This document shows positions 3,764 through 26,510 of a DNA stretch of 64,000 nucleotides, one piece after another; position 1 is the first letter of the stretch, and every line of letters begins with the position of its first letter. Source of the stretch: Alphaproteobacteria bacterium. GTDB lineage: Bacteria; Pseudomonadota; Alphaproteobacteria; Bin95. The notes below the pieces were generated by a model. That model did no database searches, was not told the DNA's origin, and was given only the letters and a program-made list of their open reading frames with translations. The DNA lies in assembly GCA_964291285.2 (NCBI GenBank), contig OZ219787.1, positions 1,600,001 through 1,664,000 of the forward strand, read 5' to 3'. The translations under genes were made by a program, and so were the position numbers.

Positions 3764-4531
3764 CTACCGTGGCGCGAGCCTTATCGCGCCGTCGAGGCGG
3801 ATGGTTTCGCCGTTCATGTAGTCGTTGCGGACGATCTCCATGACGAGGGAGGCGAATTCGCGGTCGCGCCCGGTGCGCTTCGGGAAGGGCACCTGCTTGC
3901 CGAGCAGGTCGAGGGTCGAGTCCGGCAGGCCGGCGAGCAAGGGCGTGTCCATGATGCCGGGCGCGATGGTGCACACGCGCACGCCCCAGGACGCGAGGTC
4001 GCGCGCCGCCGGCAGCGTCATGCCGACGATGCCGGCCTTGGCCGACGCATAGGCGATCTGGCCGATCTGGCCTTCATAGCCCGCGACCGAGGCCGTGTTG
4101 ACGACCACGCCGCGCAGGCCCTCGCCGTTCGCCGGCTCCAGCTTCGCCATGTCCTCGGCAGCCTGCGAGAGCATGTTGAAGGAGCCGAAGAGGCAGATAT
4201 CGACGATGCGCTTGTAGTTCTCGAAGGGGATGCGCCGGCCGTTGCGGTCCACGATGCGCTGGGAGCCGCCGACGCCGGCGCAGTTGATGCAGATGCGCGC
4301 GATGCCGTGCGCCTCGCGGGCGGTTGCGATGGCCGCCCCTACGGCTTCCTCGCTCGTCACGTCGCAGGGCACCGCGAGTGCGCCGACCTCCTGCGCGGTC
4401 TCCTCGGCCAGCTCCGCATTGCGGTCGAGCAGCGCCACCCGCGCGCCCGCTTCCGCGAGCGCCGCCGCCGTTGCGCGCCCGAGACCCGACGCTCCGCCGG
4501 TCACCAGCGCCGCCACACCTGTCACGTCCAT
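3764..4531 (-). CDS. SDR oxidoreductase, 3-hydroxyacyl-CoA dehydrogenase type II-like
   Basis: VTGGASGLG, NCAG, 'NTASVAGYEGQIGQIAYASAKAGIVGMTLPAARDL', 'NGETIRLDGAIRL'. Confidence 0.9.
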   Translation of the reverse strand: MDVTGVAALVTGGASGLGRATAAALAEAGARVALLDRNAELAEETAQEVGALAVPCDVTSEEAVGAAIATAREAHGIARICINCAGVGGSQRIVDRNGRRIPFENYKRIVDICLFGSFNMLSQAAEDMAKLEPANGEGLRGVVVNTASVAGYEGQIGQIAYASAKAGIVGMTLPAARDLASWGVRVCTIAPGIMDTPLLAGLPDSTLDLLGKQVPFPKRTGRDREFASLVMEIVRNDYMNGETIRLDGAIRLAPR

Positions 4532-4641
4532 GCGCATGCCCCTCCGCATCCCGATGCGGCGCGCACTCTGCCACAACCGGCTGCTGCTTTCGACGCGCTT
4601 GATTTCCGCGTCCCCTGGTCCATTATGCACCGCTTCCGCGC

Positions 4642-4717
4642 GGCCCCTTCGTCTAGCGGTCCAGGACGCCGGCCTCTCACGCCGGAAACACGGGTTCGAG
4701 TCCCGTAGGGGTCACCA
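4642..4717 (+). tRNA. tRNA-Glu (anticodon CTC)
   Basis: 76 nt; acceptor GGCCCCT/AGGGGTC, anticodon stem CCGGC-CTCTCAC-GCCGG, T-loop GGTTCGAGTCC, encoded 3' CCA. Confidence 0.97.
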
Positions 4718-4818
4718 TTGCGCTGATATTTTGACACCGTTCCAAGGAGTTACCCTCCTTCTTTGTCCAGCCGAACCCTTCGGTTGGACGCGGCCCAGCC
4801 GGCTCGACGGAGGAGAGG

Positions 4819-6132
4819 ATGAAACGCCAGCTCCACCTGAACCTGTTCATCTACGCCCGCGGCCACCACGAGGCGGCCTGGCGGCACCCCAGGGCGCCCC
4901 GACGCGAGCTGCTGGACATCGACCATATCGTCGAGTGTGCGCGCAAGGCGGAAGCGGCGCACATGGACTCAGTCTTCCTCGCCGACACGCTGGGGCTGGC
5001 GCCCGACGCGGACCGCACGGCCCGCATGTATCTGGACCCGCTCACCACCCTGGCGGCGACCGCCATGGCGACAAGCCGTATCGGGCTCATCGGCACGGCT
5101 TCGACGACACACTCCGAGCCCTTCAATATCGCGCGCATGTTCGCCTCGCTGGACCACATCAGCCGGGGCCGGGCGGGCTGGAACATCGTGACGTCCTTCA
5201 GCATCGCCGGGGCCAACAATTTCGACAGCAGGGGCCGGCGCCCCCATGCCGATCGGTACGAGCGGGCGGACGAGTTCATGGAGGTCGCCAAGAAGCTGTG
5301 GGACAGCTGGGCGGACGACGCCATCCTGGACGACCGCAATGCCGGCTATTACTACCGCCGCGAACGGGTAAGGCCCATCGACCACCACGGTCCCCACTAC
5401 GACGTGGCGGGGCCCCTGAATATCCCGCGCAGCCCCCAGGGGTGGCCGGTGCTCGTCCAAGCCGGGTCCTCGGACACCGGCAAGACTTTCGCGGCAAGGC
5501 ACGCCGAGGCTGTCTTCACCGCCCACATGACCAAGGCGACCGCCCAGGAGTTCTACAAGGACCTGAAGGCGCGAACGGTGGCCAGCGGACGACCCGCGGA
5601 CCAGTGCCTGATCCTGCCCGGCATCAGCATGGTCATTGCCGGCACCGAAGCCGAGGCGAAGCGAATGGAACGGGAACTCAACGAGATGGCCGACGTCGGG
5701 TCGAGCCTTTCCCGCCTCTCCCAGCGCTTCGACGGACACGACTTCTCGCACATCCCCCTCGACCGCGTGCTCACGGCCCGCGACTTCCCCGACCCGGCGG
5801 AGAACCAGAGTTCGCGCGGCCGCACCGAGCTGATCGTTGGCGCCGTCACCCAGGAGACGCTGACGATGCGCCAGCTGCTGGGGAAGCTGGCCGGCGCGCG
5901 CGGGCACTTCGTCATGGCGGGAACGCCCGAGCAGGTCGCCGACACTATCGAAGAGTGGGTCGATGACGGTGCGGCCGACGGTTTCAACGTCATGCCGCTG
6001 CTTCTCCCGCACATGCTGGACGTGTTCGCCGACGAGGTCGTGCCGATCCTCAAGCGCCGCGGGCGCTTCCGTACGGAGTATGCCGGCGCAACGCTCCGCG
6101 ACCATTACGGCCTGCAGCGACCATCGGCATAG
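4819..6132 (+). CDS. LLM flavin-dependent monooxygenase, NtaA/SnaA/DszA family
   Basis: 'H.AAWRHP', 'F.AD', 'ARMFASLDHISRGRAGWNIVTS', 'PRSPQGWPVLVQAGSS', 'TLRDHYGL'. Confidence 0.9.
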   Translation: MKRQLHLNLFIYARGHHEAAWRHPRAPRRELLDIDHIVECARKAEAAHMDSVFLADTLGLAPDADRTARMYLDPLTTLAATAMATSRIGLIGTASTTHSEPFNIARMFASLDHISRGRAGWNIVTSFSIAGANNFDSRGRRPHADRYERADEFMEVAKKLWDSWADDAILDDRNAGYYYRRERVRPIDHHGPHYDVAGPLNIPRSPQGWPVLVQAGSSDTGKTFAARHAEAVFTAHMTKATAQEFYKDLKARTVASGRPADQCLILPGISMVIAGTEAEAKRMERELNEMADVGSSLSRLSQRFDGHDFSHIPLDRVLTARDFPDPAENQSSRGRTELIVGAVTQETLTMRQLLGKLAGARGHFVMAGTPEQVADTIEEWVDDGAADGFNVMPLLLPHMLDVFADEVVPILKRRGRFRTEYAGATLRDHYGLQRPSA

Positions 6133-15818: not shown

Positions 15819-16814
15819 TTAGCCGTTGGCGAGCAGGGCGTCGATGCGCTCCGGTGCGAGGCCCGTCGCGCGGACGGCGGCGGTAATCGCAGCCCAGGCG
15901 TCGCCGGAAAGGGGCAGGCCGTTGGCGCGGCGCTCGGCGGCGGTGATGCGCTCCGGGTCGCCCGGCACCAGCACCGGCGCGTCCGGGTCGGCGGGCCGGG
16001 CGGAGAGGAGCCATTCGACATAGTCCTCGACCGTGCGCGCAAAGGCCTCGCCCGGGCCGAAAGCGTCCGGCCGGGCGTAAAGCGAGAACATGCCGTTGGC
16101 GAAGGGCCTGTCCGTCGGCCCGCAGACGCCGTTGCCGGTGAGCGCGCCGCCCAGCAGCTCGCACATCAGCGCCAGGCCCGAGCCCTTGTGCTCGCCCATC
16201 GCGCGGATAGCGCCCCTGCCGTCGCGGAACTGCGGCGGCGCGTCCGGCCCGGCGGTGCCGTAGAGCGCGGCGGGGTCGTTCGTGCGCCGTCCCTCGCCGT
16301 CGATCAGCGCGTCGTCCGGCACCGGCTTGCCGCCCTTGGCCGCGACCAGCACCTTGCCTTCCGCGACCACGGAGGTGGCGAAATCGAGCACCAGCGGCTC
16401 GCGGCCCTCGCGCGGCACGGCCACGCAGAAGGGCGCGGTGGAGAAACGCCGCTCGCGCGCGCCGTAGGGCGCGACCAGCACGCTGCCGCGCGCATTGACG
16501 AAATGGACCGAGACCAGCCCTTCTTCGGCCGCCGTCGCGGCCCACTCGCCGATGCGGCCGAGGTGGCCGGTATTGCGCAGCGCCACCACGCCGACGCCGC
16601 CGGCGCGCGCCTTCTCGACGCCGCAGCGCACGGCCTGCGGGCCGATGGTCTGGCCGAAGCCGAGGCATCCGTCGAGCACCGCCATCGCGCCCGTGTCCGA
16701 CACGGTCTCCACCTCCCGGTCCGCCGCGACCCGCCCGTCGCGCAGCATGTCCAGATAGCGCGGCACGCGCACGATGCCGTGGCTGTCATGGCCGGCGAGG
16801 TTGGCCGACACCAG
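15819..16814 (-). pseudogene. Malate/L-lactate dehydrogenase family (Ldh_2, YbiC-like), C-terminal part, interrupted by the integrative element
   Basis: Begins at 'LVSANLAGHDSHG' without the usual N-terminal helices; HLGRIG, DFATS..AEGK, HKGSGL; the missing N-terminus lies at 25005-25112. Confidence 0.88.
16808..16814. repeat. Left att core (ACACCAG)
   Basis: Identical to 25007-25013; extends to ACACCAG(C/A)GAG, 10/11 match. Confidence 0.85.
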
Positions 16815-16835
16815 CGAGCGCACCTGTGGGTGCTA

Positions 16836-16845
16836 ACTATCTGAC
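16836..16845. repeat. Left subterminal inverted repeat ACTATCTGAC
   Basis: Perfect reverse complement of GTCAGATAGT at 24966-24975. Confidence 0.7.
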
Positions 16846-16937
16846 ATAGCGTTGTTTTTTCTCCCGAAATGCAGCGGTCGGGGAAGCGGGTCGCAAGGGC
16901 CCGTTCCCCGGCTGCAACCGGAGCCGGGAGAAACGCA

Positions 16938-18062
16938 ATGGCGAAGACTACCCTCACCGAGGCGCGCGTGAAGGCGCTCAAGCCCCGCAGGTCCGTCCGC
17001 GAGGTCCGCGACGGCAGGCTCAGGGGGTTCGGCGTCCGTGTGTCGCCCTCGGGCCGCAAGCAGTTCTTCATCCACTGCCAGCATCGCGGCGCGCGTATCT
17101 GGAAGATTGTCGGCGACGCCGACAGCATGAGCATCGGCGAAGCGCGGGCCGCGGCTGCGGAGATGCTCGCCACCATCAGGCGCGGCGGGGAGGCGCCGCT
17201 CACGCCGGACGAGACGCTCTTCGAAGCCGTCGCCGGGATCGCGTTCCGCCGTCACGAGGGCGTCTGGAAGCCCGGAACGATGATCGTGAACCGAAGCTAT
17301 CTGCGCAACCGGCTTCTGCCGCATTTCGCCGGAAGGCCGATTGCGGAGATCGACCGGCAGGAGGTGCGGCACTGGTTCGCCCGCCTGCGCGCGGTGCCGG
17401 CGGCGGCGGACCGGTCGATGCCGGTGCTGTCCGTCATCATGAGGGAGGCGGAAGCCATGGGCCTGCGCCCGGAGGGCTCCAATCCCTGCCGGGGGATCAG
17501 GCGCTACCGCCGCAAGGGCCGCGAGCGGTTCCTCCCGGACGAGGAAATCCGCCGCCTGTCCGGGAGGCTCAAGGCGCATGAGGCCCGCTGGCCGCAGCAT
17601 GTCGCCGTCATCCGCCTGCTGCTGCTGACCGGCTGCCGCAAGGGCGAGATCCTCACCCTGCAATGGTCCGATTACCGCGAAGGCCGCCTGTTCCTGCGCG
17701 ATTCCAAGACGGGGCCCCGGACAGTCTGGCTGTCGGAGCCGGCCCGGGCGGTGCTTGATCGTCTCGAGCGGAAGGGGCGGTGGATATTCCCGGCATCGAG
17801 GGGCGACCGGCCCCGGAGCGGAAGCTGGCTGTTCCACTTCTGGAACCGGGTCCGCGCCGAGGCGGACCTGGAGGACGCCCGCCTTCACGACCTGCGCCAT
17901 ACGCATGCGAGCCTTGCCCTCAGGCAGGGCGAGACGGTGCTCGCCATCGGCCGGCTGCTGGGCCACCGCAGGCCGGAAACCACGCTGAAATATACCCATG
18001 TCGCCGACGCCATGGTGCAGGACGCAGCCGAGACGGTCGGCGCGGCGCTGGAGGCAGGCTGA
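16938..18062 (+). CDS. Tyrosine recombinase/integrase 1 with N-terminal arm-binding domain
   Basis: N-terminus 'LTEARVKAL..VRD..LRGFGVRVSPSGRK' (Arm-DNA-bind_3-like); catalytic TGCRKGE, KTG, HDLRH, LGH...TLKY. Confidence 0.92.
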   Translation: MAKTTLTEARVKALKPRRSVREVRDGRLRGFGVRVSPSGRKQFFIHCQHRGARIWKIVGDADSMSIGEARAAAAEMLATIRRGGEAPLTPDETLFEAVAGIAFRRHEGVWKPGTMIVNRSYLRNRLLPHFAGRPIAEIDRQEVRHWFARLRAVPAAADRSMPVLSVIMREAEAMGLRPEGSNPCRGIRRYRRKGRERFLPDEEIRRLSGRLKAHEARWPQHVAVIRLLLLTGCRKGEILTLQWSDYREGRLFLRDSKTGPRTVWLSEPARAVLDRLERKGRWIFPASRGDRPRSGSWLFHFWNRVRAEADLEDARLHDLRHTHASLALRQGETVLAIGRLLGHRRPETTLKYTHVADAMVQDAAETVGAALEAG

Positions 18063-19207
18063 TGGCGGGCCGGGAACGGATGAAACTCACCGACGCCGCC
18101 GTCGCCCGTCTCCGCCCCCGCGAGCGGGAATATACGGTCTGGGACACGCGCATCGCCGGTCTCGGCGTCCGGGTGCGGCCCACCGGCGGGCGCAGCTGGG
18201 TGCTGCTGCTCGACAGGGGCGGGCGCACCAGGCGCGTCTCGCTCGGCCCGGTCGGCGTGAAGAGCCTGGAGGAGGTTCGCAGGGAATGCCATGCCCGCAA
18301 GGCGAACCCCGAGCCGGAAAAAGAGGCCCGGCCGGCGCAGCCGGTCCCGCTGTTCCGGGATTTCGTCGCCGGTCCATGGAAGGAGGCGCATTTCGACGGC
18401 TACAAGCCCTCGACGCAGAGGACCGCCCGCTATCAGCTTGCGGGCCAGCTCCTGCCGGCATTCGGATCGAAGCCGCTGGACCGCATCGGCGAGGCCGCCA
18501 TCCGGCGCTGGTTCGAGCGATACAGCCGCACCGCGCCGGGCAACGCCAATCCCTGCCTTGCCCGTCTGCGGCAGATACTCAACTTCGCCCTCGCCTGCGG
18601 CCACATCGAGGTCAATCCCGTCGGGCGCATCGCCCCGAACCGCCGCACGGCGCTCACGCGGTTCCTGTCCCGGGAGGAACTCGCACGCCTCCATGCCGCC
18701 TTGGACGCGCAGACCCGGAAGAGCGCGCGGCAGCAGGCCGACATCGTCCGCCTCCTGCTGCTGACCGGCTGCCGCAGAAGCGAGATCACGGGCCTGCGCT
18801 GGTCCGAAGTCCGCGAGGACGGGCTGGCGCTCACCGATGCCAAGACCGGACCGAGGACGGTCCCGCTCGGCAGCGGGGCCCGGGCCATTCTCGACCGGCA
18901 GCCGCGCACGGGCAGCCCGTTCGTGTTTCCTTCGCCGTGCGACCCCGCCCGCCCGCGCAGCCCCGACCTGCCGCTCTGGTACCGCGTCAGACGCGAAGCC
19001 GGCATCGGGGATGTCCGCCTTCATGACCTGCGCCATACCATGGCCAGCCATGCGGTGATGAACGGCGTGCCGGTCCCGGTGGTCTCCCGCCTGCTCGGGC
19101 ATTCCAGTGTGCGCATGACGCTGCGCTACGCCCATCTCGCCGACCGCGACATCGAGGCCGCCGCGGAACGCGTCGGGCAGGCCATGAGCGCCGTGCTGGA
19201 GACATGA
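18062..19207 (+). CDS. Tyrosine recombinase/integrase 2 with N-terminal arm-binding domain
   Basis: TGATG overlap with integrase 1; 'LTDAAVARL..VWD....GLGVRVRPTGGRSW'; TGCRRSE, KTG, HDLRH, LGH...MTLRY. Confidence 0.92.
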   Translation: MAGRERMKLTDAAVARLRPREREYTVWDTRIAGLGVRVRPTGGRSWVLLLDRGGRTRRVSLGPVGVKSLEEVRRECHARKANPEPEKEARPAQPVPLFRDFVAGPWKEAHFDGYKPSTQRTARYQLAGQLLPAFGSKPLDRIGEAAIRRWFERYSRTAPGNANPCLARLRQILNFALACGHIEVNPVGRIAPNRRTALTRFLSREELARLHAALDAQTRKSARQQADIVRLLLLTGCRRSEITGLRWSEVREDGLALTDAKTGPRTVPLGSGARAILDRQPRTGSPFVFPSPCDPARPRSPDLPLWYRVRREAGIGDVRLHDLRHTMASHAVMNGVPVPVVSRLLGHSSVRMTLRYAHLADRDIEAAAERVGQAMSAVLET

Positions 19208-19307
19208 CCGGGGCGGCCGCGGCAGACCCGCTCCTTCATGAGCGAATGGCGCCGGTCTTCTGCCTGCGCCGCACCCGGCCCGATGCTGCCGCTATCGGCG
19301 TGTCCGG

Positions 19308-20558
19308 TCAGAACTGTCGCACGAAGGAGAGTTCGGCGCGGTTTCGTTTGTAGTCGAGGGTCTGGGCGTTGGTATCGCGCTCCTCGCGGATGAGCGAGAG
19401 GCGGGGGCTGAAGCCGAGCACGGTGACGGCGCGGTTGTGCACGGAGAGCGAGAGGCTGCGCGTCTCGTCCCGGCGCGGCCTGCGGTCGATGGTATTGTGG
19501 GCGAAGCCCTGTCCCTGGTATGCGGCGCGCTGCAGGGAGGCGCGCAGGCCGAGGGTGAAGCCGGCCGGCAGCGCGAGCGTCGCGCCGAGGCCGGCCCGGG
19601 GTCCGCGGTTGCGCCAGTGTCCGGCATTGGCGCGGGTCCAGTTGTATCCGGCATGGCCGCCGAGGCGCAGGATCGGCAGGGCGGCCCAGCTTGCGCCGAG
19701 CATCGCATCGCCCGCCGGGCCGTCGAGCCAGTTGCAGCCGCGGCAGTTGCGCCGGGTGGCGCTGGCGTGGGCGAACAGGGCGAGGCGCGGCGTCAGGCGG
19801 TGCGCGCCTTCCAGCCGGACGCCGAAGCGGTCGGTCTCGGGCCGCCCGGCGGTCCATTGCCGGTCCACCACCGCCAGCAGGCTCGCCTCCGTGCTCCCGT
19901 CGATCAGCCGGCGCGGGCCGATATGGGCCGAGAGCGAATGGCGGTCGAACGCCCCGCCCTTGTATTCCCGCGCGCTGGCGTCCGCCCCGGCGCGCAGCCG
20001 CAGGGCCGGCGAAAGCGGAACCTGGTATTCGCCGCCGCCCCACAGCGAGACGCCGATGCCCGACTTGCGCGACACGTCGCCGTCGAGGGTGAAGGGCAGG
20101 CGCCCGAACGGCGTGTCGAGGAAGACCGTGCGCTCCCCCGACGCGGCGTTGAGGTTGCTGTCGGGCGCCACCGCCAGGCCGAAATGCGCCTCCCAGCGCC
20201 GCCGCGCGCGCATGATGTCGAGAAAGCGCCGGATGTTGGCGGCCACCGCCGGCGGCGGCGTCCCCGCCAGCACCTGTTCGAAATGCCGCCGCGCCAGGCT
20301 GTCCTCTTCCTTCAGGAAGAAGGCGTGCGCGAGTTCCAGACGCACCCGCACCAGGTCCGGGCGGTCCACCAGGATGGCCCGGAACGCCGCAATCGCCTCG
20401 TCGAGCTTCCCGTCGCGGGCGTCCCGGTCCGGGGCGGCCTGCGCGGCGGCAAGCGCCTCCATGCCCGCCCGGAACCGCTCGCCGGTCGCGTCCTGGCCGT
20501 GGGCCGCGGCGGCGAACAGATACAGCCCGGCCGCAATGACGAGAGCGGGTATGCGCAT
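19308..20558 (-). CDS. Slam-like outer-membrane surface-lipoprotein translocon (DUF560, type XI secretion)
   Basis: Signal peptide; TPR-like 'P.LVRVRLELA.A.F...ED.LAR.HF..VL'; 'APDSNLNAAS' barrel entry; amphipathic strands; C-terminal beta-signal 'AELSFVRQF'. Confidence 0.82.
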   Translation of the reverse strand: MRIPALVIAAGLYLFAAAAHGQDATGERFRAGMEALAAAQAAPDRDARDGKLDEAIAAFRAILVDRPDLVRVRLELAHAFFLKEEDSLARRHFEQVLAGTPPPAVAANIRRFLDIMRARRRWEAHFGLAVAPDSNLNAASGERTVFLDTPFGRLPFTLDGDVSRKSGIGVSLWGGGEYQVPLSPALRLRAGADASAREYKGGAFDRHSLSAHIGPRRLIDGSTEASLLAVVDRQWTAGRPETDRFGVRLEGAHRLTPRLALFAHASATRRNCRGCNWLDGPAGDAMLGASWAALPILRLGGHAGYNWTRANAGHWRNRGPRAGLGATLALPAGFTLGLRASLQRAAYQGQGFAHNTIDRRPRRDETRSLSLSVHNRAVTVLGFSPRLSLIREERDTNAQTLDYKRNRAELSFVRQF

Positions 20559-20616
20559 GAAAACCCCTGTCCGTGAAAGGGAACCTCCGGCCGCCCGGAG
20601 GGCGCCGGAGGAAAGA

Positions 20617-20647
20617 AGGCCCCGGCCGCCTGAAGCAGCCGGGGCCT
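20617..20647 (-). terminator. Putative intrinsic terminator/attenuator between lipoprotein and Slam genes
   Basis: 10-bp stem AGGCCCCGGC/GCCGGGGCCT followed on the minus strand by a short pyrimidine run (TCTTT). Confidence 0.5.
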
Positions 20648-20670
20648 GAACCGGATGTTCCGGGAGCGGG

Positions 20671-22416
20671 CTACTCTGCCGGCGCCTGTATCCTCGTCGA
20701 GAAGGCGCCGGCAGCCGACCCGTTCGGGAAATGGGTGTTGAAGGTGCCCAGGTAACCGGCCGGGCGCCCCACGCCGTCCGGGCTGAAAGGGGTACCCTGC
20801 CAACTGCCGGGCTTGTCGAAGGCGGTGCTGCCGCTGGAACCCGTGGCCAAGCCCTCGGCATCGAAGCTGACATGCTTTGTCTGCGCGAGCTTGACGCTCC
20901 ACTTCTCGTCGACGGCATTCCCCATGAAGTTGTCGATCTTTCCTTCTATTTTGGGATCAGCCCCGAACTTGGCGTTGAGCGTCACATCCGCCGTGAACCG
21001 TGCGGTCTTCTGCCCCGTGTGCTCGCCAGCGGTGTAGAGCTTCAGCGCCGACAGGCCAAAGGCTTCGCCCTTGTAGGTGGCAGTGTTCGGGAGAGTGGTG
21101 CTCTTGCCGTAATCTCCGCGACTGACGGCAGGGCTGTTTGCCATGACCGCAATCCCGGTGGTTGTGCCGGTTCCATACAGCCAGTACCCGTAGCGGACAT
21201 AGCCTTGGTACTCCGTGTAGTGGGAGTTCCTCGGCGTTATCCAGTAGTAGCGATACGAGCCCGCGTAGCCATCGTCGAATTCGTCGGCCGCCTTGAAGAA
21301 CAGGTTGCCGGTCAGCTTGCCGCCCTCGGCAGAGCATGTGCCCTGGCAATACAGCGTCCCCTTGACCCCCTTGTAATACTGGTCGGCGAGCATGCCGCCG
21401 GTGAGCGTGGGATACGCCGTCAGGGCCGTTCCGCTCGAGTCGGTGAGTGAGGACAGGGGCATCCCGGCAAGGGGCAGGACATCGACATCCATGTTGTCGG
21501 TGCCGAAGGCCTTCTTCACGAGCATCCCATCCTTGGCGGCAATCTGCTCCCAGGTCATGACGCCGGCCGGGAGTTCGCCATCGTCATACTTGTGATAGAA
21601 CATGGATCTCCGATCGGCGACCTCCCCGGTGGCGATGACCTTCCTCGGCGGCATGGAGACCCCGGAGAGGGTCCCTGTCGGCCTCGGACTGTACTGAGAC
21701 GTGCCGTTTTTGCCATCGTAACCGCCGGTGCGGGTCGAGCCGGAGCGAGCTGAGGCCGCAGGCGACAAGGTATCAAGCAGCCGCCTCGCGGGCCTTGACG
21801 ATGTAGCGTTGTCGAAGCCAGCGGTAGCGAGGGTTTCGCCGGCGCGGTCCTTGATTTCCGCCTCGGTATCGACCCTCGAGAAATAGTCTCCGATCGTGCC
21901 GGCCCCGGTCAGGGTCTTCTCGATGGCCTTGATCTCCGCTTTCACTGTTTCGATCTGACCCGTGACCACCTTCTTCTGCGCCGCAAGGCCGGTCGTGCCG
22001 GCCGGCAGGGCGTTCAGGTCCGTCTGCGCCTTCTCGGCCGCCGTCAGCGCCGCCTTGGCGTCCGCCAGCGCCTTCTCGGCCGCCGCCTTCGCGGCCGTCA
22101 CGAGCGCGGCGTTGGTCCGGACCACCGAGCTGTCGCCGCCTGTATAGTAGATTTGCTGAGCGAATTGGGGCGGCTCGACCGCCTTCTTGACCGCGGCCAG
22201 CTGAGCTTCCGCTTCCTTCTTGGCATCCATCGCCGCCGTCTCGGCTGCCGCGGCGGCGTCGTAGGCCGCCTGCGCCTTCTGGACGTCCGTCATCTCCATC
22301 TGCTGGTCGCCGTCCATCGGCGCGGCCGCCTTCTTCCCGCCACCGCCTCCGCAGCCCGCGAGCGCCAGGCCCGCAGCGGCCATCGCCGCCAGAGCCACAT
22401 GTCTCATGGTCCTCAT
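20671..22416 (-). CDS. Surface lipoprotein with Ala/Lys-rich helical stalk and C-terminal TbpB/fHbp-like beta-barrel
   Basis: Lipobox LAG-C followed by GGGGG linker; C-terminal 'TATYKGEAFG..ARFTADVTLNAKFG...IEGKIDNF..GSWQG.F....GTFN.HF.NG.AAGAF' typical of Slam substrates. Confidence 0.78.
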   Translation of the reverse strand: MRTMRHVALAAMAAAGLALAGCGGGGGKKAAAPMDGDQQMEMTDVQKAQAAYDAAAAAETAAMDAKKEAEAQLAAVKKAVEPPQFAQQIYYTGGDSSVVRTNAALVTAAKAAAEKALADAKAALTAAEKAQTDLNALPAGTTGLAAQKKVVTGQIETVKAEIKAIEKTLTGAGTIGDYFSRVDTEAEIKDRAGETLATAGFDNATSSRPARRLLDTLSPAASARSGSTRTGGYDGKNGTSQYSPRPTGTLSGVSMPPRKVIATGEVADRRSMFYHKYDDGELPAGVMTWEQIAAKDGMLVKKAFGTDNMDVDVLPLAGMPLSSLTDSSGTALTAYPTLTGGMLADQYYKGVKGTLYCQGTCSAEGGKLTGNLFFKAADEFDDGYAGSYRYYWITPRNSHYTEYQGYVRYGYWLYGTGTTTGIAVMANSPAVSRGDYGKSTTLPNTATYKGEAFGLSALKLYTAGEHTGQKTARFTADVTLNAKFGADPKIEGKIDNFMGNAVDEKWSVKLAQTKHVSFDAEGLATGSSGSTAFDKPGSWQGTPFSPDGVGRPAGYLGTFNTHFPNGSAAGAFSTRIQAPAE

Positions 22417-22498
22417 CGAACCCTTCTCCTTCCTTCTCTCAAGCCCGGACAGACCGGGCAAACCGTTTGAACCGTTCCTTCGCCGCGCGAAACGCCGC

Positions 22499-23599
22499 TC
22501 AGAAGTTCAGCGTGATGCCGGTCACGAACCCGGCGCCCTCGACATTGCTGCCGTCCGCCCGGTCCTTCTCGGCCATGAACAGCGAGCTTCTCCAGGCAAT
22601 GCCCGGCGCCAGCGTGTAGCCCGCCGAAAGCAGGCCGCCCGACTGCTCCGTGCCGTCGTCGGCCTCGGTCATCGTGCCGCTCAGGCTCACCGCCATCGCG
22701 CCTTCCGAATACATCACCCCGGCGGCCACGACCTCGACATCCTCGGGACCGTCCGCCTTCATGCCGTCGTCCGCCGTGGCGTAGGCGACATCGAAGCTGA
22801 ACGCCCCCATGCCCACCCGCAGGCCGGCATTCGTGTAGGTCATGTCGTCGGCGTCCATCTGGCTCTTCTGGTAGTGGCCCGCAGAGAACGCCAGGTTCAT
22901 GTTGCCGAAATCGCCCTTGTAGTTGCCGCCGACCGACCAGGCGTCGTCGTCATTGTTCATCACATTGCCGCCACGGCCTTCCTGCTTCGTGTTCGGGATG
23001 TAGCTCACGCCCATCTGCGCGCCGTTCACCCGCGGCGTGAAGTAGCTCACCAGGTTCCTGTCGCCGAGGCCGTGGCCCGCGGTCCCCAAGCCCTTCACGC
23101 TGCACTCGTCGATGCCCTTGATCCATCTGCCCATGTCGCCGCAGTTCATGCCGAAACCGGCATCCCGCACGCCCATGTGGGTGAGAACCACCGCGCTGTC
23201 CTCGGCTCCCAGCGTGATCTGACCGAACTCGCCGCCAACCGTCACCTGCGACTCGTCAATCATCTTGTCCGAACTGTTGCCCTCGAGCTCCACCTTCACC
23301 AAGAAGGTCATGCCGTTGTCGGCTTCCAGCTTGCCCTTGAAGAAGATCTCGCTGTCCGACTGCTGGGCAACGCCGCCCTCGACCGTCGCGTCCGCCTCGT
23401 CGTCCACATCGACCATCCCGAACCACTGCTGCATGTAGCCGCCGACGCCCACGCTCAGCATGTCCGCCGCAGACGCGGGACCCGCCGCAAGCGCAAGACC
23501 CGAGGCCGCAAGAAGAACCTTGCCCGTGAAACCCCGCGCTCGGCATCCGCCATGCAGCCTGCCGTCCCCCGGCCATGCCGGGCCATGTCTTGTCGTCAT
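22499..23599 (-). CDS. Outer-membrane porin (alphaproteobacterial Porin_4-like)
   Basis: Signal peptide ending ASA; 'DSEIFFKG.LEADNG.TF..KVELEG', 'G.FG.ITLG', 'SYFTPR.NG', C-terminal 'GITLNF'; GAAGGAG RBS. Confidence 0.85.
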   Translation of the reverse strand: MTTRHGPAWPGDGRLHGGCRARGFTGKVLLAASGLALAAGPASAADMLSVGVGGYMQQWFGMVDVDDEADATVEGGVAQQSDSEIFFKGKLEADNGMTFLVKVELEGNSSDKMIDESQVTVGGEFGQITLGAEDSAVVLTHMGVRDAGFGMNCGDMGRWIKGIDECSVKGLGTAGHGLGDRNLVSYFTPRVNGAQMGVSYIPNTKQEGRGGNVMNNDDDAWSVGGNYKGDFGNMNLAFSAGHYQKSQMDADDMTYTNAGLRVGMGAFSFDVAYATADDGMKADGPEDVEVVAAGVMYSEGAMAVSLSGTMTEADDGTEQSGGLLSAGYTLAPGIAWRSSLFMAEKDRADGSNVEGAGFVTGITLNF

Positions 23600-23950
23600 C
23601 GTCTCGTCTCCTTCAGGTGAAAGCCCGTCCGCAGCGCCCGTCGACCGCCGCACGCCGGAGAAGGCGCACGACGGGGCGGCAGGTCACCGGGGACGGGAGG
23701 TGAAGCCGCGGCCCCGGAAAGGCCGCGGCAGAAAGCGTGACGGGGAAAGCCGGGCCGCCCGCAAGGCGGTCATGCCGCAAGCGCGGCGGGCGCGCTCCCG
23801 CGCGCTGCCCGGCAACCTGTCCATCTGCACGCGCCCGGCGCTCCTCCGCAGAGGACGCACGGGCGGGAAAGACAACAATCAGGCGGGAGCCGCTCTCCCG
23901 ATGGCGAACCGGCAGACCGGCGCCAGAAGACGGCATATGAAAGACATGAA

Positions 23951-24047
23951 GAGGCGCGAGGCGCGAGGCGCGAGGCGCGAGGCGCGAGGCGCGAGGCGCG
24001 AGGCGCGAGGCGCGAGGCGCGAGGCGCGAGGCGCGAGGCGCGAGGCG
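23951..24047. repeat. Perfect heptanucleotide tandem repeat (GAGGCGC)x13 plus GAGGCG
   Basis: 97 nt of uninterrupted 7-bp units read directly. Confidence 0.97.
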
Positions 24048-24965
24048 TATTCTACACCGTGTTCGAGCCGCTGAAGTCAAGTCCGGATACACCCGCCGCT
24101 GAGATGGCCCGGAACCTCTAACCCGGCCGCACGACACCGCACAAGCTCCCGGACCAACCCCCACGCCGATTTTACCGACCTGTTGCATCCATGCCACAGT
24201 CAGCCGCCGACGGGCCCCCGCAAACCGGGCCCGCGGCGCCCATCGACGACCGGCAGGCGCGGCTTTCTCCACCGGCGTGCAATGGAACGCAATGGAGCGT
24301 CCGCTGCCGCGTCTTCCCCACTCCAGGCCCGCCGCCGCCAGCGGCGCATCGACAAATGCGCCGCCCTCCCCCGGGTCTCGTCCCCGCTCTCCCGGTTCGC
24401 CATCCGCCGCCGCTCGATCCGCGACAGGACCGCCGCCTCCCGCAGCACCCGGAGCAGAAGGTTCGTTGACGGACCCGCCGCCCCGGCGCCTCCACCGGGC
24501 CGGCGAGCCGGTGCGCGATGTAGCGGAAGACCATCATGCCGGACCGCCTGCGCGCTCGCCGATGCGCGCCCGTTTCCCGCCGGGCGCCATCACCGCGCGC
24601 TGCGCCGCCCGGCGGCCGGCTCATGACGACGCTCCCGCAACCGCCGCAGCCGTCACCATTCCGATTTCCATCGGCCAACATGCTTGCGTTTCTCCTGTAT
24701 CAATTATGGTATTCATCCTCTCAAGAGGTGATTCGGTGCATCACCGCTATGATCCTGACTGTCTTCGCATCAGGAGACTATCCATGCATGGAGCTATCCT
24801 CCATGCCCCCCTGAGCACAACGCATTGTCCTTGTTCACTTCCCCCAGTGCCATTATCGCCTTTACGGCTTCCTCGTAGGTCAATCCGGTTTCCTGCCATT
24901 GCCTCTTGTCATGCCCGGAAATATCCAGTATTCAGGCCCCCCTCATGGGAGGAATGCGACCTTTC

Positions 24966-24975
24966 GTCAGATAGT
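24966..24975. repeat. Right subterminal inverted repeat GTCAGATAGT
   Basis: Perfect reverse complement of 16836-16845. Confidence 0.7.
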
Positions 24976-25004
24976 GCCCTAACGTGAAAAATCTCATTTG
25001 AGAT

Positions 25005-25112
25005 TTACACCAGAGAGGCGGCGATGCGCGCGCCCTCGGCGTCGGAACAGCCCGCCGCAGCGAAGGCTTCGCCGATCAGGGATTCGGCGGTTTCGACCGG
25101 TATGCGGGGCAC
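25005..25112 (-). pseudogene. Ldh_2 dehydrogenase N-terminal fragment (35 aa), cut by the element
   Basis: GAGGAG RBS then GTG; MPRIPVETAESLIGEAFAAAGCSDAEGARIAASLV* joins in frame to SANLAGHDSHG starting across the core. Confidence 0.85.
25007..25013. repeat. Right att core (ACACCAG)
   Basis: Identical to 16808-16814; abutted by palindrome AAATCTCA-TT-TGAGATTT (24989-25006). Confidence 0.85.
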
Positions 25113-25122
25113 CGGGTTCTCC

Positions 25123-26157
25123 TCAGAGTGTCGGGAACAGCACTCCGAAGACGATACCGGAGAGGACCGCGCCGGCAAATCCGAGTCCGACATAGGCCGC
25201 GAAGACAGGACGCCGCACCACCGCATAGACGGCCGTCATGGCCGGGATGCAGCTCACCGCGCCCGCCACCATGAAGGCCATGCCGGCGCCGTTGGTCATG
25301 CCCTGCTCGATCAGCCCGGCAACGAGCGCCGGGGCCGCATAGCCGTTGAGATAGGCGGGCGCGCCCACCAGCGCGGCGGTGACGATCGGCAGCAGGCCCT
25401 CGCCGCCGACCGCGCCGGCGATCGCCTCGGCCGGCAGCCATGCCAGCATCAGGCTCTCCAGCAGGTAGGCGAGCGTCAGCCATTTGAGCAGGAAGAGGGC
25501 GTTTTCCTTCGCCTCGCCGGCGAAGACCCGCCGGCGGTCCGCATGGCCCCAGAAGCGCCATTCGGGCGTGCCGCCGAAGGCGCTCGGCGCGCCGCAGCAG
25601 CCGCCGGCCTCGCGCGGCTTCACCGGATCGGCGAAGAAGCCGGCGCGCACCGCCGCCTGCATGGCGAAGCCGCCCATCAGGCCGACGCCGACGGCGGCGG
25701 CCGTCTTGCCGATGGCGAAGGGCCAGCCGAGCGCGCCGGCGGTGATGAGGAGGGCGGCCGGGTCGATCAGCGGCGAGGACAGCCAGAACGCCATCACCGC
25801 CGAGACCGGCGTGCCGAGCGCCAGCAGCGCGGCGATGAAGGGGATCACCTCGCAGGAGCAAAAGGGCGCGAGGCCCCCGACCAGCGCCGCCAGCACGATC
25901 ATCCGGCTCTCCCGCCCGACGAAGGCCCGCGCCACCAGCGCATCGGCCCCCGTCGCCTTCAGCACCGCGACCGCCAGCACCGCAAAGGCGATGAAGGGCA
26001 GGGTGTGCAGGAGCGCGCTGAGCGTGAAGGAGACGGAGGGGCGGAACTGCGCCGGGTCGGCAAGGGCGACCGCAGCCAGAATGGCGAGCACGGCCAGCCA
26101 GACGCGGCCGATTTTCGGCCATTCGAGGCGTTGCAGCGCAGCGGCGAGGGCGGTCAT
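25123..26157 (-). CDS. ArsP/DUF318-type permease
   Basis: 'GGLAPFCSCEVIP', 'MAFWLSSPLIDP', Cys pair 'GGCCG' in loop, 'GAPAYLNGYAA', 'GAVSCIPA'. Confidence 0.8.
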   Translation of the reverse strand: MTALAAALQRLEWPKIGRVWLAVLAILAAVALADPAQFRPSVSFTLSALLHTLPFIAFAVLAVAVLKATGADALVARAFVGRESRMIVLAALVGGLAPFCSCEVIPFIAALLALGTPVSAVMAFWLSSPLIDPAALLITAGALGWPFAIGKTAAAVGVGLMGGFAMQAAVRAGFFADPVKPREAGGCCGAPSAFGGTPEWRFWGHADRRRVFAGEAKENALFLLKWLTLAYLLESLMLAWLPAEAIAGAVGGEGLLPIVTAALVGAPAYLNGYAAPALVAGLIEQGMTNGAGMAFMVAGAVSCIPAMTAVYAVVRRPVFAAYVGLGFAGAVLSGIVFGVLFPTL

Positions 26158-26186: not shown

Positions 26187-26510
26187 CTAGATCGAAATAT
26201 GCCGATGTCCCGGAGATTTGTCAACCTCGTCCGCGCAACATTCTTTCAGCAGGAAACCCAGCGTTTCGTTCATCGCCTCCGCATTGGCGCGGCAGATGAG
26301 CGTGGTGCCGCGCCGCTCACGGCTCATCAGGCCGCAATCCGCCAGCCGGCGCAAATGGTGCGAGAGCGTGGAGCGGGGCACGCCCGTGCGCTCATGGATG
26401 TCGTTGACGGCAAGCCCCCGCTCGCCCGCCCGCACTACATGGCGGAACACGGCAAGCCGCGTCTCGTTGCCGAGCACTTCCAGGCGGACGGCGATTTCTC
26501 CAAGCGTCAT
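26187..26510 (-). CDS. ArsR/SmtB family transcriptional regulator
   Basis: 'LGNETRLAVFR.VV.AG..G', HTH 'STLSHHL..L..CGL..RER.G', C-terminal 'ECC'. Confidence 0.88.
   Translation of the reverse strand: MTLGEIAVRLEVLGNETRLAVFRHVVRAGERGLAVNDIHERTGVPRSTLSHHLRRLADCGLMSRERRGTTLICRANAEAMNETLGFLLKECCADEVDKSPGHRHISI

Follow-up and report, generated by a model that had tools for sequence, protein, structure and literature searches.

Which kind of mobile DNA has split a malate/L-lactate dehydrogenase family (Ldh_2) gene in an alphaproteobacterial genome, and by which route did it arrive there? The question is raised by a 64,000-nt stretch of contig OZ219787.1 (positions 1,600,001 to 1,664,000 of the forward strand; hereafter the window), in which an element at positions 16808-25013, carrying two adjacent tyrosine integrase genes, intA and intB, separates the two parts of the gene. 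This element is probably an integrated copy of a family moved by an obligate IntA-IntB pair via conservative site-specific recombination. The initial annotation of the window had described a compact, probably recent, transposon-like element with two tyrosine recombinases, which could not be assigned by homology to a named family, and this description is supported by the analysis reported here.

The heptamer ACACCAG is present at both junctions, 16808-16814 and 25007-25013, as first annotated. Deleting in silico 8199 bp, i.e. one copy of the repeat and the intervening DNA, rejoins the N-terminal piece of 35 amino acids (aa; 25112-25005, ...RIAASLV, TAA) with the C-terminal piece (open reading frame, ORF, 15819-16823) and gives an open Ldh_2 frame of 1095 nt and 364 codons, again in agreement with the initial annotation. 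The TAA stop of the minus-strand N-terminal piece comes from the inserted DNA, and the C-terminal piece matches the Pfam Ldh_2 profile from position 29 (E=8.6e-96), as expected with the loss of about 30 N-terminal residues. An alignment of the rebuilt site (187 nt) with the orthologous gene, suggested at the outset as a check, was contiguous, gap-free and full-length at nine of nine same-genus loci (L002-L010), with 93.0-96.8% identity, and each of these loci holds a single copy of the core. Across 12 genomes of the genus, the Ldh_2 orthologues are 83-95% identical. The insertion is real and exact, and a chance repeat is excluded. It is also recent: apart from the split, the gene is intact, all nine related species have an empty site, and a 99.83%-identical copy (7240 nt), with the repeat ACACCCG, is found at a different site on another replicon, contig 5, which points to recent movement.

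The empty sites also show which junction has kept the original sequence. Seven of the nine read ACACC-AGCGAG and none reads AGAGAG, so that the six nucleotides (hexamer) following ACACC at the left attachment (att) site, attL, are the target version, and attR, on the right, bears one foreign base. This difference is synonymous in Ldh_2 (TCT/TCG, Ser). The earlier reconstruction of the empty site holds except for this base: the attR version had been chosen for it, and it is attL that matches the target. The view that the 7-bp repeat is the crossover overlap was not borne out either, the repeat being composed of a 5-bp ACACC core and the first two nucleotides of a variable 6-nt coupling region.

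According to Pfam, IntA and IntB both possess an N-terminal Arm-DNA-bind_3 domain, a central SAM-like/Phage_int_M domain and a catalytic C-terminal Phage_integrase domain. They are 40% identical over their full length, and IntA homologues are 373-374 aa long. A pairwise alignment places the catalytic residues R-K-HxxR-H-Y in both proteins, within the motifs TGCR, D(S/A)KTG, HDLRH, LLGH and L(K/R)Y, whose positions we take to be those customary in the integrase family. The intA stop and the intB start overlap (TGATG), and the two genes are predicted to be translationally coupled. No att-like sequence was found between them. Among copies with different cargo, similarity begins at the left end and breaks off exactly at the intB stop, which indicates that no third conserved gene stands beside the pair. 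In 48 of 52 loci from other genomes, IntB lies within about 30 nt of IntA, the four exceptions being truncated, interrupted or at a contig end. Both integrases would be required for movement.

As a whole, the window's own genome (five contigs, 6.1 Mb) gave 116 IntA matches, and a tblastn search with both proteins yielded 101 non-overlapping integrase segments, almost always IntA followed by IntB on one strand. Full-length adjacent pairs on the same strand number 38, of which 35 are distinct, and fall into four groups by IntA identity: 70-100%, 57-62%, 44% and 37-39%. Many copies are nested or rearranged. In a maximum-likelihood tree, a quick version with the careful search unfinished, the first and second genes of 32 type 1-3 pairs lie on opposite sides of a branch (SH-aLRT 95) and form mirrored sub-trees, which indicates that the pair is old and was inherited as a unit; the fourth group (37-39%) is a separate duplication. 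A search at E <= 1e-60 detected the family in 15 of the other 16 genomes of this genus and in none of 20 from two sister genera. With IntA as query, more than 4,670 proteins were matched at E <= 1e-30, and the few of these with a name have only a generic one. The 52 loci from other public genomes come mostly from alphaproteobacterial metagenome-assembled genomes (MAGs), including Defluviicoccus and Rhodospirillaceae, and a tblastn search of a plasmid collection with IntA returned 30 records, none reaching 60% identity (34-40% among the 25 matches listed) and all labelled 'site-specific integrase'. The proposal of the initial annotation to seek other copies of the integrase pair and compare their ends and targets thus led to a large family with a shared junction grammar. 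The window element is one reduced member of this large and widespread family. The family itself appears to be undescribed in the literature searched: no paper on paired P4-type integrases or on an ACACC-N6 att site was found, in a search that reached few subscription journals.

Two of the loci (L041 and L067) come from MAGs labelled Dehalococcoidia/Chloroflexota. The left flank and junction of L041 are the same as those of L038 and L040, from an alphaproteobacterial MAG chromosome, and mis-binning seems more likely than inter-phylum transfer for these two loci.

The junctions of the family follow the order flank, ACACC, N6, CGCACC, in which ACACC is the shared recognition core and the six nucleotides are hypervariable. 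Left ends pooled from this and other genomes gave 77 matches, 75 of them anchored, with 64 unique junctions. In the latter, each position of ACACC is conserved at 70-92%, the top base at the next six positions reaches at most 47%, and CGCACC is conserved at 100%, followed by N4-5-GGTGCTAAC; the DNA upstream of ACACC is unrelated between copies. A 6-nt spacer is found in 41 junctions and a 5-nt spacer in 12, and seven left junctions are without an exact ACACC. As for the right ends in this genome, 12 of 14 stop at ...TGAGATTT or a close variant, ending in ...ATTT, and continue with ACACC, one reading ACACG and one ACGCC. ACAC(C) likewise opens the left ends in the 57-62% and 44% groups.

The two arms carry ACTATCTGAC as inverted copies, and at the right end a perfect 8-bp palindrome lies directly against the core; these arm repeats and the palindrome are plausible candidates for arm- and core-binding sites. 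The left arm measures 130 nt. Its end block (16819-16845) is kept in 48 loci of other genomes, and the right arm was recovered at 14 right ends of the genome with 78-100% identity. Two distant genomes show the same architecture, with a right end reading ...ATTT followed by ACACC and a hexamer, and the two ends about 72 kb and 34 kb apart; compared with the left end of the upstream pair, the right hexamer agrees at five of six bases in one and with four of the left end's five spacer bases in the other. Searches for the right arm in distant genomes gave zero of four with the exact pattern and two of five by similarity, the arm not being found in the other three with this query.

Eight elements of the genome have both ends. 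Their repeats are ACACCAG (window copy), ACACCCG, ACACCCCTGAACG, ACACCACGGCCGC, ACACCGCGCC (twice, once with ACGCC at one end) and ACACCTTCCA, ranging from 7 to 13 bp, and one element is without a clean repeat (AGACC-GCCGAG vs. ACACC-CCTGAG). The attL and attR hexamers of the eight agree at 5, 5, 6, 6, 5, 5, 5 and 4 of 6 positions. The mean agreement is 5.1 vs. 2.1 for mismatched pairs (one same-target duplicate left out), and in a permutation test only one of 5040 arrangements, the true pairing, reaches the observed total. Left ends that are otherwise about 99% identical carry different hexamers (AGCGAG, CGAGAG and GGTGAG), while whole near-identical elements differ by only 0.17%, which indicates that the hexamer changes with each move.

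An independent empty site was available for three insertions, the first being the window copy, with its target hexamer at attL and one foreign base at attR. The second is the 8.26-kb copy at C3:1579027-1587288, for which the site in seven relatives has the sequence A(G/C/T)ACC-GCCGA(G/A)-GGCTCC or one close to it; the attL of this copy (AGACC-GCCGAG) is that of the target, agreeing with six of the seven at the first three hexamer positions, and in its attR (ACACC-CCTGAG) two hexamer bases and one core base are foreign. The contig 5 copy, whose target is a repeated gene, shows the reverse: three of seven uninterrupted paralogues read ACACC-CGGGAG, as does attR, and the attL base (CGAGAG) is found in none of the seven. 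One junction keeps the six nucleotides of the target and the other carries six near-identical foreign ones. Both arrangements are predicted by a staggered exchange around a non-identical overlap after replication of the heteroduplex, and the pattern suggests that this exchange takes place across a coupling sequence tolerating one or two mismatches. The attR hexamer of the window copy, AGAGAG, would come from the donor, and the presumed donor hexamers of the two near-identical copies (AGAGAG and CGAGAG) are one base apart.

Concerning the targets, the initial annotation had noted that the window element sits in a coding sequence rather than in a tRNA gene. The split gene confirms this, and long open frames with a high G+C content at third codon positions harbour at least five of the eight complete elements. 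These frames are Ldh_2, a 396-aa gene with a YAcAr/SLOG domain, a 411-aa frame and a 492-aa insertion sequence (IS) transposase gene, the last being hit by two elements. The transposase (DDE_Tnp_1/DUF772) has 23 uninterrupted copies (e.g. C1:143382-144188, L099), in which exactly 7 nt separate the two flanks. At this same position of the gene, ACACC-GCGCCG, lie four left junctions belonging to one element sub-lineage; the repeated landing is a lineage-specific site preference, consistent with hexamer matching. In total, the genome contains 8,154 ACACC sites and 156 ACACCNNNGAG sites.

Movement would accordingly be envisaged as conservative site-specific recombination by IntA and IntB, and not as DDE-type transposition. 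A circular form would carry the joint ...TGAGATTT-ACACC-N6-CGCACC... and recombine with a chromosomal ACACC followed by a hexamer nearly identical to the element's own. Staggered strand exchange, with cleavage presumably on either side of the hexamer, would leave ACACC at both junctions. Differing hexamers would form a heteroduplex, from which replication or repair would give the target hexamer at one junction and the donor hexamer at the other. The element may carry off the hexamer of its last target, and its address would then drift, which would explain the many targets, the lineage-specific hot spots and the repeats of 7 to 13 bp. With its own integrases, the window copy is probably still able to move from site to site in the cell, but transfer functions of its own are absent. 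More tentatively, IntA-IntB could be an obligate hetero-oligomer whose address lies partly in the element's own hexamer. Integration would then require ACACC and a hexamer close to that of the element, and, with either junction able to retain the hexamer of the last target, the address would be rewritten by one or two bases per hop, making the element a self-retargeting site-specific transposon. If so, lineages could lock onto one site (e.g. the IS transposase position) or roam among coding sequences, and a change of six bases would in principle suffice to choose the target.

Several observations weigh against conservative movement by an obligate pair. The high copy number also fits a replicative (copy-out) route, no excisionase was identified, and the support of the pair by phylogeny comes from the quick tree. 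Only three insertions have an independent empty site; among these, the single attR difference of the window copy could be a private point mutation, and the contig 5 target is a variable repeat, whose closest paralogue (98%) reads CGCGAG, unlike both junctions. Finally, end profiles detected 14 right ends vs. 26 left ends in this genome, a shortfall which suggests that many copies are rearranged, truncated or have unrecognised right ends. Replicative, strand-biased copy-out as in the SE and Tn554 families, in which attL and attR recombine to a circle, no empty donor site arises and the donor hexamer is always at one junction, would suit a copy number that is very high for an integrase-driven element; besides, two of the three empty-site insertions have the target hexamer at attL and a foreign one at attR, as in the rule described for SEs (PMC10214605). 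We nevertheless regard this route as unlikely, since the contig 5 copy shows the opposite arrangement, the SE genes tfp and srap as well as the large TnpB and the TnpC of Tn554 are absent, with conservation stopping at the intB stop, the GmtZ model reaches only 25 bits vs. a cutoff of 600, and both integrases are ordinary-size, arm-binding P4-type proteins.

Somewhat less credible still is a lambda-like, strictly homology-dependent integration with identical overlaps, in which the targets would be matching secondary sites and the differences later point mutations. A preference for homology is clear, the hexamers being identical in two of the eight elements and one base apart in five, but the differences are confined to the hexamer, with 30-40 nt of surrounding flank and arm unchanged. 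Moreover, the junctions of C3:1579027 differ at two hexamer bases and one core base, with an attL that fits the empty sites of its relatives, and the hexamer (AGC/CGA/GGT-GAG) varies among 99%-identical left ends far above the background divergence of 0.2%. Tandem accretion of islands at one att site is common, and the nesting and rearrangement of many copies would also be in keeping with a single-integrase island whose second integrase is a passenger, acquired by such accretion or left as a nested remnant. This is very improbable given the constant spacing and order in the 38 pairs here and in 48 of 52 loci elsewhere, the overlapping stop and start codons, the lack of an att-like sequence between the genes and the mirrored IntA and IntB clades. 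Least probable of all is a target-site duplication made by a transposase-like staggered cut: direct repeats do flank an insertion inside a gene, but ACACC recurs at nearly all copies and belongs to the conserved right end, the repeat length is not constant (7 to 13 bp), the element with AGACC-GCCGAG vs. ACACC-CCTGAG has relatives with a single site, and ORF screening found no DDE, HUH or serine enzyme encoded in the element.

In function, the closest precedent is MTnPi1-3, tandem-integrase, low-specificity mobilizable transposons, the comparison being drawn on how the elements work. In the sections of the reports cited, MTnPi1-3 of Prevotella intermedia (Bacteroidota) are described as having two tandem tyrosine integrases at one end, several near-identical copies and constitutive excision (PMC4755523), a copy without the second integrase as showing no excision (PMC4755523, PMC5704250), and the att consensus as TTAC-N5-AA, 11 bp (PMC5704250). 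The window element likewise has two tandem tyrosine integrase genes at one end, and its family shares a short degenerate att site of fixed and variable bases (ACACC-N6, or ACACC-N3-GAG in the window element's sub-lineage), a low target specificity and multiple copies (eight complete elements at different sites and 38 pairs). MTnPi1-3 carry mobilization genes; here, other members have NikA-like genes and one of them TrwC, and the window copy has only a decayed remnant. Whereas the integrases of MTnPi1-3 are mutually dissimilar, IntA and IntB are 40%-identical P4-type paralogues, both arm-binding; the phylum also differs, the targets are GC-rich vs. AT-rich, and 38 full-length pairs stand against 2-6 copies.

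The Int of Tn916 tolerates heterology in the overlap. For IntDOT of CTnDOT, identity is reported to be needed only at a GC dinucleotide, with 5 bp of heterology tolerated (PMC2817482). As with IntDOT, exchange here would be staggered at a short overlap with a site-variable coupling sequence, and the adjacent bases are common to element and targets; as with both IntDOT and Tn916, the coupling sequences of attL and attR can differ, one being that of the target and the other presumably that of the donor (three insertions, with contig 5 the weaker case). In contrast, IntDOT is described as a single integrase working with accessory proteins and belongs to a different integrase lineage, and the identity of four to six of the six hexamer bases here indicates that homology still matters.

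The SE core is given as intA-tfp-intB-srap, GInt as ginA-D, and Tn554 as tnpA, a large TnpB (over 600 aa) and TnpC, in the parts of the two papers cited (PMC10214605, PMC3414803); in the former, SEs are reported only from Gammaproteobacteria, with 1-2 copies per replicon (PMC10214605). Our family shares with these three more than one tyrosine recombinase gene in a left-end operon, a 6-bp spacer that would travel with the element (footprint/fingerprint), a limited set of insertion sites and compact members without transfer genes of their own. Membership was rejected in each case: for SE, only two genes are conserved and GmtZ stays at the score given above; for Tn554, IntA has 374 aa and IntB 381 aa, with no third conserved gene; for GInt, four genes (ginA-D) are needed and the extra ones are absent. 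RIT elements are described as three adjacent, overlapping recombinase genes of three distinct families (ritA, ritB and ritC) and BIM as one tyrosine recombinase with an SMC-domain protein, neither with defined att sites in the account cited (PMC3414803). They resemble the present family as multi-copy modules of adjacent recombinases in Proteobacteria, suspected to be self-movers (PMC3414803). RIT was rejected on account of the two genes only and the clear att sites found here, and BIM because the second gene encodes a paralogous integrase and not an SMC-domain protein. The three-domain architecture of IntA and IntB is that of the P4/SXT-type integrases (Arm-DNA-bind_3, formerly DUF4102) of islands, integrative and conjugative elements and integrative and mobilizable elements (IMEs). 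As a rule, a P4-type island carries one integrase and inserts at a single site of high specificity, in most cases a tRNA gene. The present family differs from them by its apparently obligate pair, its many protein-coding targets and its massive intragenomic spread.

The features of the window element are shown in Table 1.

Table 1. Features of the element and of the split Ldh_2 gene (window coordinates).
Feature	Position	Strand	Remarks
Ldh_2 (malate/L-lactate dehydrogenase family), C-terminal part	15819..16823	-	Pfam Ldh_2 profile 29-332 of 333; listed ORF extends a few codons into the left end of the element
attL, ACACC core	16808..16812	+	common to target and right end of the element
attL, putative coupling (crossover) hexamer AGCGAG	16813..16818	+	equals the target hexamer of relatives; positions near-random family-wide
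Left-end core/arm block	16819..16845	+	CGCACC (invariant, 64/64 unique junctions), palindrome GCACC-TGTG-GGTGC, then CTAACTATCTGAC (inverted copy in right arm)
intA, P4-type tyrosine integrase, 374 aa	16938..18062	+	Pfam Arm-DNA-bind_3, Phage_int_M/SAM_3 and Phage_integrase; ORF also readable from 16869
intB, second P4-type tyrosine integrase, 381 aa	18062..19207	+	Pfam domains; ATG overlaps the intA stop by 1 nt (TGATG)
Cargo: Slam (surface lipoprotein assembly modifier) outer-membrane protein	19308..20918	-	Pfam SlipAM, E=1.9e-19; TPR_Slam under cutoff
Cargo: lipoprotein, no named family	20671..22461	-	lipobox LAGC; adjoins the Slam gene
Cargo: Gram-negative porin	22499..23653	-	Pfam Porin_4, E=4.3e-35
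Perfect GAGGCGC run, about 14 units	23951..24047		repeat search; upstream of the porin gene
Decayed NikA-like (ribbon-helix-helix, relaxosome accessory) remnant	24172..24681	-	about 45 N-terminal residues resemble an intact 127-aa protein; no Pfam match
Conserved right arm	24690..25006	+	holds TCAGATAGTGCCCTAAC (24967-24983) and the palindrome AAATCTCA-TT-TGAGATTT (24989-25006), which abuts the core
attR, ACACC core	25007..25011	+	right-end comparison
attR, putative coupling hexamer AGAGAG	25012..25017	+	third base differs from the target hexamer
Ldh_2, N-terminal 35 codons	25005..25112	-	closed by a TAA from the right end of the element

Screening of 11 ORFs of the element detected no recognisable relaxase, replication, phage or DDE gene, as the initial annotation had stated. 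At the right side, 1.3 kb are without a recognisable gene and end in the conserved right arm. The G+C content of the element is not distinct from that of its surroundings, and an Rfam search of 16000-26000 gave no match at E <= 0.1. In NCBIfam, IntA, IntB, Slam, the lipoprotein and the porin all remain under the family cutoffs, the integrases having only generic Xer/integron matches. The true start of the Slam gene is probably near 20558, where a signal-peptide-like MRIPALVIAAG... begins. The lipoprotein has no match in Pfam, NCBIfam or the PDB sequences (in the latter, one chance-level match, E=0.1); a weak atlas lead (score 0.90, under the recognition threshold) points to TbpB_B_D / Slam-dependent surface lipoprotein clusters, and the protein is probably a Slam substrate. 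An 82-aa ORF (24200-24448, minus strand) has a sub-threshold Pfam DddA-like match (20.7 bits vs. a cutoff of 25), probably noise in such G+C-rich DNA. Directly upstream of the split Ldh_2 gene, also on the minus strand, are an ArsR-type regulator gene (26187-26510) and an ArsP_1 permease gene (25123-26157), the latter ORF ending 11 nt from the Ldh_2 start used for the reconstruction.

In most copies of the family, two small genes of 127 and 109 aa with Pfam NikA-like PF21983 matches (E=2.7e-6 and 8.4e-10) stand before the right arm, and a TrwC relaxase-helicase of 1,726 aa is encoded in a 36-kb member. Further members contain a 2,273-aa fibronectin-III protein, ARPP-1, an ADP-ribosylglycohydrolase and nested ISs. 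Only about 45 residues of the first NikA-like gene are recognisable in the window copy, where this remnant is not a functional gene. By its gene content, the family looks mobilizable, with large members resembling IMEs and the window copy a reduced mobilizable island. The same decayed arm and Slam cassette are found at four or more places in the genome, which indicates that the reduced form was moved or copied without NikA-like genes in cis.

The cassette of Slam, lipoprotein and porin genes (window 19308-23653) is present in at least seven places of the genome, with copies also at C1:55711-61502, C1:796406-802224, C3:399973-405147, C3:406456-414156, C3:1579034-1587286, C5:305406-310846 and C5:393186-400425. 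Its ends are 92-99% identical and the lipoprotein gene about 75-87% (element coordinates 4050-5750), which looks like a diversifying surface lipoprotein on a mobile cassette. The GAGGCGC run lies about 300 nt upstream of the porin gene and its number of units (RLAPRAS repeats) varies between element copies, a variation that would suit slipped-strand phase variation.

The type 3 pair family (IntA 44% identical) is present in 11 copies with 97-98% mutual identity (e.g. C1:792226-794785; L025, L026), and its left end likewise starts with ACACC-CGACGC. Two of these copies stand directly before the Slam cassette and the window element's type of right end, and a truncated type-1 intB comes after one of the two, which points to hybrid or nested elements. 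The idea that type 3 pairs are minimal, IS-like units of two integrases was rejected, since the shared sequence ends about 130 nt past the second gene and variable cargo lies beyond. The genome also contains a repeat of about 1,046 bp and another of 207 bp, with dozens of copies each.

Integrase-driven islands are usually seen as single-copy and tied to one tRNA site. Here, a P4-type integrase lineage seems to have been duplicated into an obligate pair that behaves like a transposon, with dozens of copies per genome, insertions in genes and a short, partly portable address. The family appears to move outer-membrane cassettes (Slam, surface lipoprotein and porin), adhesin-like giants and relaxase modules around multi-replicon genomes, and it also breaks genes and ISs. 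Despite its abundance, the family carries no annotation beyond 'site-specific integrase', and will therefore be mis-called by genome annotation and by island finders. Should the hexamer indeed determine the target, the IntA-IntB pair would offer a simple system for understanding how tyrosine recombinases trade specificity for mobility.

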